From: a virus
Lineage: Duplodnaviria > Heunggongvirae > Uroviricota > Caudoviricetes
Strand: one strand, 5' to 3'
Length of the DNA stretch: 64,000 bases
IMG/VR virus record: IMGVR_UViG_2531839664_000027
Position 1 is the stretch's first letter; each line of letters begins with the position of its first letter. Below, piece after piece: positions 42,001 through 45,000 of the stretch. The position numbers were made by a program.

Positions 42001-45000
42001 TTCGGTGACGGTGAAAGGGAAGACTGCTGTCTACGGACGTGTGCGTATTGAGGGGACCGAAAGTACGGTGACGCTCAATATGCTGTTACGCCGCAGTCTT
42101 GTTGAGGTTAGCATACCCGGAGAACTGCTGACAGATTTCCGGCAGATACAGAATAATGTGGCTGATGACCTTGCCACTATTCGTCGCCTGAATGAAGACA
42201 CGGCGACAAAAAACACTCAGGCCACACAGTCAAAAGAAAGTGCAGCAGCCAGTGCGAAGAGTGCATCTGACAGTGCAAAGACGGCAACCAGCAGGGCGGC
42301 TGAAGCCGGACAAAAAGCGACTGATGCCACTGAGGCTGCGACCCGTGCAGTCACAGCAGCGGGGAATGCAGAGGAAAGCTCGACCCGTGCCGGAGAGTCT
42401 GAAAAAGCCGCCGGAGCTGATGCAGAAAAAGCCAGACAGCATGCTGAAAAGGCCAGGCTGGCGCAGGAGAGCGCCGGAGAGATCCTTAAGCGGGCAGAGG
42501 CTGCCACTGTCAGTGCTGAAGAGGCCAGACGTATGGCTGAGAATGCACGGGGGCCCCGGGGGCCTCAGGGAGAAACTGGTCCGAAGGGGGATGTCGGTCC
42601 TAAAGGCGAAACAGGTCCAGTGGGCCCTCAAGGGCCCGCAGGGCCGAAAGGTGAGCGTGGTGACGTTGGTGCTCAGGGGGCTGTAGGGCCCGCTGGTCCG
42701 CGTGGTGAGAAGGGCGAACAGGGGGAGCGAGGACCGCAGGGAATACCAGGCCTGAAGGGGGATACCGGAGAGCGGGGGCCTAAAGGGGACCAGGGGGATA
42801 TGGGGCCAAAAGGCGAGAAAGGTGATCCGGGAGGTCCTGCAGGCCCGCAAGGTCCTAAAGGCGAACGAGGAGAAGCCGGACCACAGGGACCTCGTGGAGA
42901 GCCAGGTCCGGCAGGCAGCGCTGCAAATGTGGCTGATGCAACGACGGCACAGAAGGGAATTGTGCAGTTAAGCAGCGCAACGGACAGTGATGATGAAACG
43001 AAGGCTGCCACCCCGAAAGCGGTGAAAGCGGCAATGGATGTGGCAAATGAAGCGAAAACAAAGGCAGAAGAGGCTGCAGCAGGAGGTGGTGTTCCCGGTC
43101 CGAAAGGAGATAAAGGGGACACGGGGCCAGCAGGTCCGGCTGGGCCGAAGGGTGATAAGGGAGAGCGCGGTGACACCGGCCCTGTCGGGGCAACCGGCGA
43201 ACGGGGACCGGCAGGTGATGCTGGTCCGGCAGGCCCGCAGGGGCCGAAAGGCGACAGGGGAGAGCGGGGAGAGACCGGTCTGACGGGAAATGCAGGTCCA
43301 CAGGGTCCAAAGGGAGATACCGGTGCGGCAGGTCCGGCAGGCCCACAGGGACCGAAAGGAGAAACAGGTGCGGCTGGCCCGGTAGGGGCAACCGGACCTC
43401 AGGGGCCGAAGGGCGACCCGGGGGAGACGCAAATACGGTTCCGTCTGGGGCCGGGAAACATTATTGAGACAAACAGCAATGGCTGGTTCCCGGATACAGA
43501 TGGCGCACTCATCACCGGACTGACCTTTCTTGACCCCAAAGATGCCACACAGGTTCAGGGGCTGTTTCGGCATTTGCAGGTCAGGTTTGGTGACGGGCCG
43601 TGGCAGGATGTTAAGGGGCTGGATGAAGTGGGCAGTGATACAGGCAGAACAGGAGAATGACATGAACATACTAAAAAAACTTATGCAGCGTCTGTGCGGT
43701 TGCGGAAAGCATGATGGCCGTGAACACGGGCAGTCGCTTACAGTACAACTGCGACTGGGACCGGCAGACATTCTGGAGTCCGATGAGAATGGCATTATCC
43801 CGGAGCAGGACAGGGTAATCACGCAGGTGGTGATACTGGATGCGGATAAAAAGCAGATACAGTGCGTGGTAAGACCGCTGCAAATCCTGCGTGCTGACGG
43901 GACGTGGGAAAATATTGGCGGGATGAAATAGCCGACAGCTTCACAAAACCGGAGCCCGGCTCCGGTTTTTGTTGTCATGTATAGGGGGGGTTATTAGAGA
44001 GTGAAGTAATAAACATGTTAATACGATGGAGTGAAGGATGCCGTGTAATTCTGGTTCAAGAGTTTTTTATGCCGGAAAATCGCAGGATTATTCTGGATAG
44101 TAAAGAATCCTGGTTAATAATCTGTGATAGTCAGTTGGGCCATTTAATGCGCAGTATGTATCAGGGACGCCGTTTTATTCAGCTGAATCTGGAAAAATTG
44201 AAAGGGGTACATGATGTCGCCTTGCCAGTGAAATGGGAATTCACATGAAGACAGTGAATAGCTTTCTGTATACGGGAATGGCGAAAAATGGACTGTATGG
44301 TGTGAGTGTGAAACATCTTGCGTGTGCGGAGTGATGCTTCTCGTTGCTACAGCGGCAATGATAATGCAGTGAAAAAAGGGGAGCAATATGCTCCCCCAAA
44401 CCGAAAGAAAATTGCAATAATCAATGAAGTTATTTAGTCATCATCAGAATGTCATGCAAGGCATTTTGTTTCAGTGATGCCGATCGCGATTTTAGCGAAT
44501 TCCATCATAAATCCCCTGATTTTTAAGCCTGAAGCAGTCAAAGGAATTTCTATGCCCTATATCGATATCACCACGATGCGTGGGATGATGCCGCGCGTTG
44601 TGACATCCATGCTGCCCGAGCATTCCGCTGTACTGGCGGAGGACTGCCATTTCCGGTTTGGTGTTATTACACCAGAACGTCAGATATCCGGGGTTGAGAA
44701 AACATTCACAATTAAGCCAAAAACAATTTTTCATTACCGTGATGATTTCTGGTTTGCGTGGCCGGATGTGGTGGATGTGATCCGTAGTCCCGTTGCTCAG
44801 GATAATTACGGGAGGATCTACTACACTGACGGAAAATTTCCAAAAGTCACGGCTGCTGAAATTGCCACCAAAGGAGAGGGTAATTTCCCTGCGGCATCAT
44901 ATCGTCTGGGGATCCCCGCACCGACAACAGCACCTGTTTGTACCGTTCAGAAGGGAGAAGGTGCCACTGACGAAAATCCGAATGATGATGAAACCCGCTT

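Follow-up and report, generated by a model that had tools for sequence, protein, structure and literature searches.

A free-standing paralogue of the collagen-like fibre tip domain encoded directly downstream of the tail fibre gene in an Stx2a phage

The small gene that follows the collagen-like lateral tail fibre gene of a 933W/Sp5/phi24B-type Stx2a phage is, on sequence comparison, an old and well-conserved duplicate of the C-terminal domain of that fibre (PfC; Pfam PF06820, Phage_fiber_C). It lies at positions 43662..43931 (+ strand) of the 64,000-nucleotide stretch of viral DNA analysed here (IMG/VR record IMGVR_UViG_2531839664_000027; hereafter the window), exactly where the initial annotation had placed it, and encodes 89 amino acids. 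The gene specifies a functional late protein and not a dead remnant, and we tentatively suggest that its product is a non-essential, trans-acting assembly or stabilising partner of the fibre, derived from the fibre tip. Both the paralogy and the dispensability of the gene have already been published, so that the present finding largely revisits a small question already recognised as open. What is added to the literature is the selection acting on the gene, its coupling to the fibre gene, its occurrence solely as a short protein, its pairing with fibres of three tail types, and the low number of its spectra in virions.

Comparison of the fibre with the small ORF by BLASTP aligned fibre residues 538-600 with ORF residues 28-88 (24 of 63 positions identical, or 38%, and 63% positives; E = 9e-13), in agreement with the 35-40% identity estimated initially. 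The Smith-Waterman score of 116 stands far outside that of shuffled controls (mean 24.2 +/- 4.2, maximum 49 in 5000 shuffles; z = 22). Both regions belong to PF06820, taken as a score above the gathering score of 25 bits over all 64 positions of the model: the small ORF scores 122.9 bits (E = 6.6e-36; residues 28-89, profile positions 1-64) and the fibre 118 bits (E = 2.3e-34; residues 538-601, full 64-position model). Besides PF06820, no Pfam or NCBIfam model matched the small ORF (E up to 0.1 and 0.01, respectively), and a search of PDB sequences found no relative (best E 0.78, spurious). Over its entire length the product matches phrog_576 (positions 1-89/89, E = 6.8e-60), and it fits the stand-alone PfC group (phrog_576; Sp5 ORF68), whose members are ~80-90 amino acids long, consist of a short basic N-terminus and one PfC domain, and are encoded immediately behind the gene of a PfC-tipped fibre. 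It is 97% identical to the main NCBI cluster, and across Stx phages its protein identity is 92-100%. Identity among free copies is 63-82%, compared with 38% between the tips of the two lineages and 29-40% between free copies and tips; across lineages, identity is 67% for the free copy versus 38% for the tip. This pattern marks the duplication as old and the free copy as more constrained than the tip.

The fibre gene (41822..43660, + strand, as are all features described below) encodes a 612-aa protein of the Sp5 ORF67 / 933W L0121 / phi24B gp61 type. Its DNA is 100% identical to that of Stx2a phages and, a 33-aa Gly-X-Y deletion aside, its product matches the PA2 fibre at 608 of 612 residues; it is a length variant of the 645-aa fibre that has lost 11 Gly-X-Y triplets. 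The domain order is PfN beta-sandwich, coiled coil, Col, Pf2, Col and PfC, with Pfam matches to Collagen, Phage_fiber_2, Phage_fiber_C and CarboxypepD_reg/phage_tail_N. The PfC domain, the C-terminal trimerisation knob (residues 538-601), occupies 43433..43624 and is followed by an acidic C-terminal tail (43625..43657) that in the alignment has no counterpart in the free copy. In the small ORF, the collagen shaft is replaced by an N-terminal extension of residues 1-27, MNILKKLMQRLCGCGKHDGREHGQSLT (43662..43742), which leads into the free-standing PfC domain (residues 28-89 and stop codon, 43743..43931). Sp5 ORF68, 933W L0122 and the phi24B ORF after gp61 are the same gene in the same slot after the collagen-like fibre, and nothing substantive sets the copy in the window apart from these other than the length variant of its fibre.

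At the junction of the two genes (43652..43664), a Shine-Dalgarno sequence, GGAG (43652-43655), is followed by the fibre stop codon TGA (43658-43660), a one-base spacer and the ATG of the small ORF at 43662. This spacing of stop, one base and ATG is common to 77 of the 79 copies of the small ORF that were found by protein pattern. In a divergent lineage (L085) the fibre and the small gene overlap, and AGGAGG lies upstream of the start. By this junction the small ORF is translationally coupled to the fibre gene. No promoter-like site was found on the + strand between 43300 and the small-ORF ATG. The fibre/free-PfC module seems to end at an intrinsic-terminator-like hairpin with a U-run (43945..43973), with a predicted folding energy of -22.6 kcal/mol (z = -5.7) that was matched by 0 shuffles; it is absent from the list produced by a consensus terminator scan. 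In phage 434 a terminator is annotated at the equivalent place, after the free-PfC gene. Because a strict regular expression for a terminator failed at most of the other loci, the assignment draws on just the fold in the window and the phage 434 annotation. An AT-rich island is located downstream of the small ORF in the window.

The full 89 codons are kept in 78 of the 79 copies, and the remaining copy is two codons shorter at its end. These copies comprise 61 DNA alleles and 31 protein alleles. The ratio pN/pS is 0.14 for the whole ORF, 0.084 for its PfC part and 0.28 for the N-terminal extension, compared with 0.276 for the PfC domain of the fibre; the small ORF is under strong purifying selection. 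The upstream fibre tip is disrupted in 5 of the 79 loci (by frameshifts; a breakpoint in one case). Conservation and expression, on which the initial annotation had made its proposal depend, are thus both borne out, by the full-length copies, by the purifying selection and by two peptides recovered from phi24B.

The N-terminus of the small protein is basic, and in an AF2 model residues 1-22 have a pLDDT below 50, with a helix at residues 3-9; outside this short helix the extension is predicted with low confidence or to be disordered. A similar basic motif, MTIFKKIKHYLFGCDKS, is found in a divergent homologue (P0127). The monomer model of the free PfC domain has five beta strands at only moderate confidence (pLDDT ~70-83), and fold searches found nothing. 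Neither a signal peptide nor a membrane segment was found in the small ORF, whose basic N-terminus is broken by charged residues. A lipoprotein or signal-peptide reading of the motif LCGCG was also rejected, given that the preceding 13 residues are broken by K, K, Q and R, and that the Cys positions are not conserved in the divergent pair L085 and L086.

Free-standing PfC genes appear always to accompany PfC fibres. Among phage records, 296 contain the small ORF and 296 contain a PfC tip, with matching organism breakdowns. The order of fibre followed by free PfC is found in three contexts, namely short-tailed (Stx phages: the window and PA2), long-tailed (lambdoid phage 434, where Lom lies upstream and T3SS effector genes downstream) and of contractile-tail type (the baseplate cluster of lineage L085, with gpV, Baseplate_J and DUF2612). 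Of 5426 complete E. coli genomes, 698 carry the module, and the median among these is 11 copies. A profile search of 1.84 billion representatives gave only 89 matches, most of them pieces of the same E. coli sequences. The sole results of a genome scan were E. albertii and a 725-bp contig that bears the label Xanthomonas pisi but is probably a contaminant. The family is tiny and essentially limited to prophages of Escherichia and Citrobacter. All relatives of the small ORF among those listed (120 of 177) are 131 aa or shorter, the 89 family representatives include a single full-length fibre, whose PfC is of the tip type, and in neither set does a free-type PfC stand at the end of a full-length fibre.

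The gene has been met before under several names. Mondal et al. 2016 (PMC5155283) described Sp5 ORF68 as an 89-aa polypeptide consisting of PfC only; it is outside the nine Sp5 genes that are essential on K-12, which include the fibre gene, and it was not flagged for fewer plaques or lysogens on K-12 (whether as a single or a block deletion is unstated). Existing annotations call it "alternate tail fiber tip" (KU977420) or "tail fiber assembly chaperone" (phage 434), and the PGAP name is "phage tail fiber C-terminal domain-containing protein" (PF06820, phrog_576). Matusiak et al. 2025 (PMC12309495) do not discuss the small gene. As to the domain itself, Ghosh et al. 2012 (PMC3368898) showed for a related fibre, EPclA, that its PfC trimerises and nucleates the collagen helix, and recombinant EPclA, Col-PfC and PfC all trimerise in E. 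coli and refold after heating, with the small protein absent. The initial annotation had spoken of a receptor-binding tip. That designation is not established, in that trimerisation and re-nucleation are what has been demonstrated for the EPclA PfC, and a phi24B cryo-EM preprint argues that the fibre tip is not the BamA binder.

The product of the small ORF is translated and is scarce in virions. In the supplement to the phi24B proteome, two tryptic peptides of the small ORF are among the matches listed, with 3 PSMs each, compared with 47 PSMs for the peptide at the extreme C-terminus of the fibre, in its acidic tail, and 2267 for the whole fibre; the small protein is thus ~15-fold below one C-terminal fibre peptide and ~50-fold below the fibre per residue, in a sample that had been stored for six months and by a method that under-samples small proteins. 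The 47 PSMs of the C-terminal peptide also indicate that the end of the fibre is retained in phi24B virions, and not cleaved off. The text of the preprint neither lists nor discusses the small protein as structural. Its proteome table labels the phi24B ORF after gp61 as gp59.

An assembly chaperone derived from the tip was one of three roles proposed by the initial annotation, and it is the one that fits best, with the Tfa-type position, the coupling, the pairing with PfC fibres and the few spectra all in its favour. It needs to be amended in one respect: ORF68 is non-essential, and EPclA and PfC made as recombinant proteins trimerise in its absence, which excludes an obligatory chaperone. We infer trimer formation by the small protein, its contact with the fibre tip and its role in assembly or stabilisation as follows. 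An old duplication placed the PfC trimerisation domain of the fibre in a separate gene, and translational coupling means that its product, the small protein, is synthesised alongside the fibre. The small protein might act in trans on the PfC knob during or just after its folding. A PfC-type trimer, or a transient mixed oligomer, may touch the C-termini of nascent fibres, and this contact could help to set the register of the collagen helix or to nucleate its zippering from C to N, or could stop knobs from mis-associating. The small protein would then be largely missing from the finished virion, and its contribution would be auxiliary and not needed for infection of K-12 in the laboratory. Against this reading, the free copy is strongly conserved despite diverging tips, unlike a surface-specific chaperone; the pattern would be compatible with an assembly partner only if binding uses conserved residues of the PfC core or interface.

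Assembly proteins of the Caudo_TAP group (lambda Tfa, P2 gpG, Mu U) are encoded directly after the fibre gene, and in stf-tfa of lambda and H-G of P2 the assembly protein occupies this very slot. The free PfC occupies it in lambdoid and baseplate-type clusters (phage 434, L085) and, like lambda Tfa, P2 gpG and Mu U, is a small late protein, coupled, directly downstream of the fibre gene and with few virion spectra; in the window the genomic context agrees, with a one-base spacer and a Shine-Dalgarno sequence indicating co-expression. However, it has no sequence relationship to Caudo_TAP or other chaperone families (only PF06820 was matched, and no N-terminal Tfa domain), and it is a paralogue of the tip of its presumed client, so that the likeness would be one of position, combined with domain mimicry. 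Also unlike Caudo_TAP, the small gene is dispensable though the fibre is essential, and EPclA folds without the small protein. In proteins of the Peptidase_S74 type, such as K1F endosialidase and T5 pb1, the C-terminal chaperone domain belongs to the fibre polypeptide itself and is removed by cleavage. There, too, a C-terminal trimerising module nucleates folding of the trimeric fibre from its C-terminal end, but the collagen-like fibre still carries its PfC in the virion, the additional copy is encoded by a gene of its own, and Pfam shows no Peptidase_S74 match at the fibre C-terminus. Somewhat more doubtful than an assembly role as such is the wider proposition that a self-derived, trans-acting copy of a trimerisation domain is an unrecognised kind of fibre assembly factor, which by homotypic mimicry would template or guard the folding of the collagen-like fibre and would long have been kept in a two-gene module passed among tail clusters of podovirus, siphovirus and myovirus type.

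The small protein might instead be an accessory distal subunit or adhesin cap, a free PfC trimer that docks on the fibre knob, stays on the virion and provides extra, non-essential specificity (e.g., for O-antigen hosts). We consider this unlikely, although the peptides do come from purified phi24B virions, the gene is coupled to that of the fibre and the two always occur together, non-essentiality on K-12 is compatible with a host-range accessory, and the KU977420 label implies such a tip. Separate tip proteins do sit on the fibre end in T2/T6 (gp38) and in Mu, where Tfa stays on the fibre, and like these the small protein is encoded after the fibre gene and could occupy the distal end. However, gp38 and Mu Tfa are not paralogues of the tip and are variable and stoichiometric, whereas the small protein is highly conserved and has far fewer PSMs than the fibre. 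Its absence from the preprint text as a structural protein also speaks against a cap, as does the stronger conservation of the free copy than of the tip (pN/pS 0.08 vs 0.28), the opposite of what is usual for receptor-binding parts.

The remaining readings are weak. Mondal et al. suggested for ORF68 the role of an "intragenomic reservoir" (PMC5155283), that is, a spare or leftover tip segment able to replace the C-terminus of the fibre. One database protein (P0137) is an in-register chimera of a free-copy N-terminal half and a tip C-terminal half, and the copy number in EHEC genomes provides ample substrate for recombination. Such a reservoir is nevertheless improbable for a gene with its own start codon, Shine-Dalgarno sequence, N-terminal extension and strong purifying selection, whose DNA similarity to the tip amounts to two matches of 14-15 nt, a size expected by chance, with no flanking inverted repeats. 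Free and tip copies group separately across lineages, which argues against exchange between them. The alternative tip envisaged initially, if created by fusion or swapping, fares no better, as no free-type fibre ends were found, repeats and an invertible segment are lacking, and conservation is higher in the free copy than in the tip. Tip switching by a cassette or inversion, as in invertible G/C segments, shufflons and DGRs, was likewise rejected, since the only repeats in 41800-44500 are the collagen-coding ones and the two short matches; no inverted repeats were found around tips, and the neighbouring genes are structural, where such systems have a recombinase or reverse transcriptase.

A role away from the phage's own fibre, as a trimer set free at lysis to serve as a decoy or blocker, or as a moron-like function of the lysogen, is similarly improbable. 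The module borders moron and effector loci (Lom and the T3SS effectors in phage 434, the AT-rich island in the window) and is dispensable for plaque formation, but the small ORF has no promoter-like site of its own, its coupling to a late gene suggests that it is expressed late, and it lacks a signal peptide or membrane segment. With identities of only 29-40% to tips, it is unlikely to bind the same ligand, and the strictness with which it accompanies PfC fibres in three tail types favours a function tied to the fibre; no support was found for the decoy function that had been raised initially. Least probable, and rejected, is a fusion of the fibre with the small ORF by programmed +1 frameshifting or read-through, which would give a fraction of fibres with tandem PfC domains. 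The small ORF is in the +1 frame one base past the fibre stop, in most copies this frame stays open over the 46 codons that precede the ATG, and the phi24B search database contains such fusions (Fusion_6159_FS1, FS2). However, Mondal et al. found no frameshift-inducing sequence (PMC5155283), read-through of the TGA enters the wrong frame, the overlapping frame is open for only 13 codons in 12 copies and is closed by stop codons 2 to 12 codons before the ATG in L085 and L086, and both observed peptides are also explained by the free ORF, the peptide with the ORF N-terminus (NILK) being absent among the matches listed for the phi24B proteome.

The fibre/free-PfC module is among the most repeated phage sequences in EHEC and lies at the edge of type III effector loci in lambdoid prophages such as phage 434. 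Establishing the role of the small protein would clarify how collagen-like fibres are built in Stx and related prophages, and would show any effect on host range and hence on the spread of stx genes. If true, a chaperone that is paralogous to the trimerisation domain of its client would be a neat mechanism of fibre assembly and a possible tool for recombinant bacterial collagens. Peptides of the small-ORF product that are suited to targeted MS are VITQVVILDADK(K), ADGTWENIGGMK and LGPADILESDENGIIPEQDR.

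The window represents a Stx2a-converting phage with a short tail, of the 933W/Sp5/phi24B type. Over the 2.2 kb surrounding the fibre tip and the small ORF, it matches many Stx2a phage records at 100% identity. The collagen-like fibre (612 aa, 41822-43660) lies downstream of an SU10-type adaptor gene and matches the Pfam families Collagen, Phage_fiber_2 and Phage_fiber_C (PfC, PF06820; aa 538-601, the tip), with an N-terminal CarboxypepD_reg/phage_tail_N beta-sandwich. The small ORF (89 aa, 43662-43931), equivalent to Sp5 ORF68, starts at an ATG one base past the fibre TGA and six bases past a GGAG, in the +1 frame relative to the fibre, and is followed by a strong hairpin with a U-run (-22.6 kcal/mol, z = -5.7). 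Judged by position and size, two downstream genes (567 and 422 aa) are the counterparts of gp57 and gp56, which form the nozzle and the axial needle in the cryo-EM preprint on phi24B (10.64898/2026.04.10.717836). After the needle gene are a 93-aa gene (47457-47738; phrog ‘outer membrane protein’) and a 188-aa gene (47735-48301; phrog ‘membrane associated protein’). They are the apparent counterparts of gp55 and gp54 of phi24B, which that preprint puts forward as the receptor-binding density at the tip of the needle.

Two local features of the window were also observed. In the first collagen domain (~42875-42880) the fibre lacks 33 aa (11 Gly-X-Y triplets) of the 645-aa PA2/933W-type fibre, and outside this gap 608/612 residues are identical; it is a collagen length variant. 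An AT-rich island (43950-44470; GC 38-46%, compared with 51-70% across the fibre gene and the small ORF) separates the terminator 3' of the small ORF from the next structural gene. Within it are a 77-aa ORF (44015-44248) and, on the minus strand, a hairpin resembling a terminator (44397-44377). PA2 is annotated with two small hypothetical genes in the matching gap, and the island may be a moron-type insertion.

Judged by alignment, the fibre tip and the small ORF are true paralogues. BLASTP aligns fibre aa 538-600 with small-ORF aa 28-88 at 38% identity and 63% positives (E 9e-13), the local score is 116 against 24 +/- 4 (maximum 49) for 5000 shuffles, and each sequence covers the whole 64-position PF06820 profile (E ~1e-34 to 1e-36). 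The small ORF also groups with the stand-alone ORF68-type proteins (phrog_576); although it occupies the genomic position of chaperone genes, it falls outside every known chaperone family. The relationship is real and was well described in the initial annotation, yet it is already published and annotated: Mondal et al. (2016, PMC5155283) described Sp5 ORF68 as a polypeptide of 89 aa consisting of PfC only. In phage 434 GenBank annotates the gene as ‘tail fiber assembly chaperone’, in AU6Stx1 as ‘alternate tail fiber tip’, and PGAP uses ‘phage tail fiber C-terminal domain-containing protein’.

The small ORF is conserved. A protein-pattern search gave 79 copies with 61 DNA alleles between them, and all but one copy retain the full 89 codons; the fibre tips upstream are disrupted in 5 cases. 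pN/pS is 0.084 in the free PfC, 0.28 in the N-terminal 27 codons of the small ORF and 0.276 in the fibre PfC, indicating a functional gene under more constraint than the tip. Free copies share 63-82% identity among themselves, whereas the tips of the two lineages (window type vs the divergent IMG/VR loci L085/L086) share only 38%, and free copy and tip 29-40%. The duplication is therefore older than the split of the modules; both PfC copies have been retained since, and comparison of identities across the two lineages gave no sign of exchange between them.

The 92-aa database protein P0137 is an in-register chimera of a free-copy N-terminal half (MNILKK...ADILES) and a tip C-terminal half (GALITGLTF...TGRTGE), either a rare recombinant of the paralogues or an assembly artefact. 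In L086 (~3843-3845) the fibre tip has an in-frame TAG where L085 has CAG, and the overlapping free PfC gene is intact. In Stx2c phage LC727884 (L087, 2244-3457) the tip is interrupted just past the codons for ...DGALIT, equivalent to window ~43500-43510, by an IS3-family element whose orfA/orfB lie on the minus strand. Truncated proteins P0136, P0138, P0142, P0143, P0149 and P0156 break at or near this site, which suggests an insertion or deletion hot spot within the tip-coding region. One phage record (H85) carries an IS3 element inside the small ORF.

Essentially all of the free-PfC family is found in prophages of Escherichia and Citrobacter. When 1.84 billion representative proteins were searched exhaustively with a profile, only 89 members emerged, mostly fragments. 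The gene is present in 698/5426 complete E. coli genomes (median 11 copies per carrier genome). Among phage records the small ORF and the PfC tip each occur in 296, with matching organism breakdowns, and the stop/one-base/ATG spacing is identical in 77/79 copies. In L085 and L086, a 79-80-aa free PfC gene (P0127 type) overlaps the 3' end of the gene for a fibre of 241 aa that is not collagenous and itself ends in PfC, in a cluster that also holds gpV-like spike, Baseplate_J and DUF2612 genes and is therefore of contractile-tail type. Long-tailed phage 434 has the order fibre, free PfC, terminator. The two-gene module is thus present in three tail architectures (short-tailed, long-tailed and contractile-tail type). 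In lambda and P2 a tail-fibre assembly gene directly follows the fibre gene, and in all three architectures it is the free PfC that occupies this slot.

Virion proteomics indicates that the protein is made. Among the peptides listed in the phi24B preprint supplement (10.64898/2026.04.10.717836), VITQVVILDADKK and ADGTWENIGGMK have 3 PSMs each, their assignment being ambiguous between the free ORF and hypothetical fibre fusions that the authors put in the database; none spans the N-terminus of the small ORF. In the same listing the fibre has 2267 PSMs, and its own C-terminal peptide 47, in a sample that was six months old and by a method that under-samples small proteins. Thus, the free copy is represented by far fewer spectra than the fibre, and the fibre keeps its own PfC, which is not cleaved off.

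We tentatively suggest that the small-ORF product partners the fibre tip without being essential. It would be made late, co-translated with the fibre, and might act on the tip as a Tfa-like helper through homology with its client. This helper role, a form of the assembly chaperone proposed in the initial annotation, fits most of the facts, but an obligatory chaperone is excluded. Mondal et al. found the Sp5 fibre gene (ORF67, ECs1228) essential, whereas ORF68 is absent from their nine essential genes, with no flagged change in plaque or lysogen numbers in K-12. Ghosh et al. (2012, PMC3368898), working without the small protein throughout, showed that PfC from EPclA, a related fibre, is a trimer by itself and that Col-PfC refolds fast after heat denaturation, so that PfC nucleates the collagen helix. 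A role as an intramolecular chaperone was likewise rejected.

That the product is instead a loosely bound distal cap is less probable, and all further readings carry little weight. The alternative tip, also raised initially and echoed in the AU6Stx1 name, is unlikely in the form of a stoichiometric receptor-binding tip because the protein is scarce among the listed virion peptides and more conserved than the tip. Adhesins are usually less conserved, the opposite of the free copy relative to the tip. In addition, experiments identify PfC as a module for trimerisation and nucleation, and the phi24B authors argue that BamA is not bound by this fibre tip and that the fibre is directed back toward the capsid (preprint 10.64898/2026.04.10.717836).

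A frameshift extension joining fibre and small ORF is unlikely: the +1 frame is closed by stops 2-12 codons upstream of the ATG in L085/L086 and 13 codons upstream in 12 other copies. Swapping or fusion of tip segments found no support, since the 120 listed of 177 close relatives of the small ORF are all short (49-131 aa) and include no full-length fibre, and repeats in 41800-44500 are limited to collagen-coding repeats and two chance-size matches of 14-15 nt, with no inverted repeats flanking the tips. A switching system was rejected, a recombination ‘reservoir’, the role suggested by Mondal et al., is unlikely, and a dead remnant is ruled out by the evidence.

In phage 434 (L001, 6438-9648), type III secretion effector genes and fragments (an NleB-like pseudogene, NleC, NleH-like) lie directly 3' of the module and terminator, so that the module sits at the border of the effector cargo. 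A 93% identical small-ORF copy on a 725-bp contig labelled Xanthomonas pisi (NZ_JPLE01000138.1) most likely reflects contamination of that assembly with E. coli or phage DNA. Finally, in the 565-aa protein P0145, four tandem repeats (...VVVLDAD...ILRVRQADGTWKEIPA...) that resemble PfC in its C-terminal half precede a collagen-like region, and thus the PfC half-motif is also a repeat unit in other fibre-like proteins.
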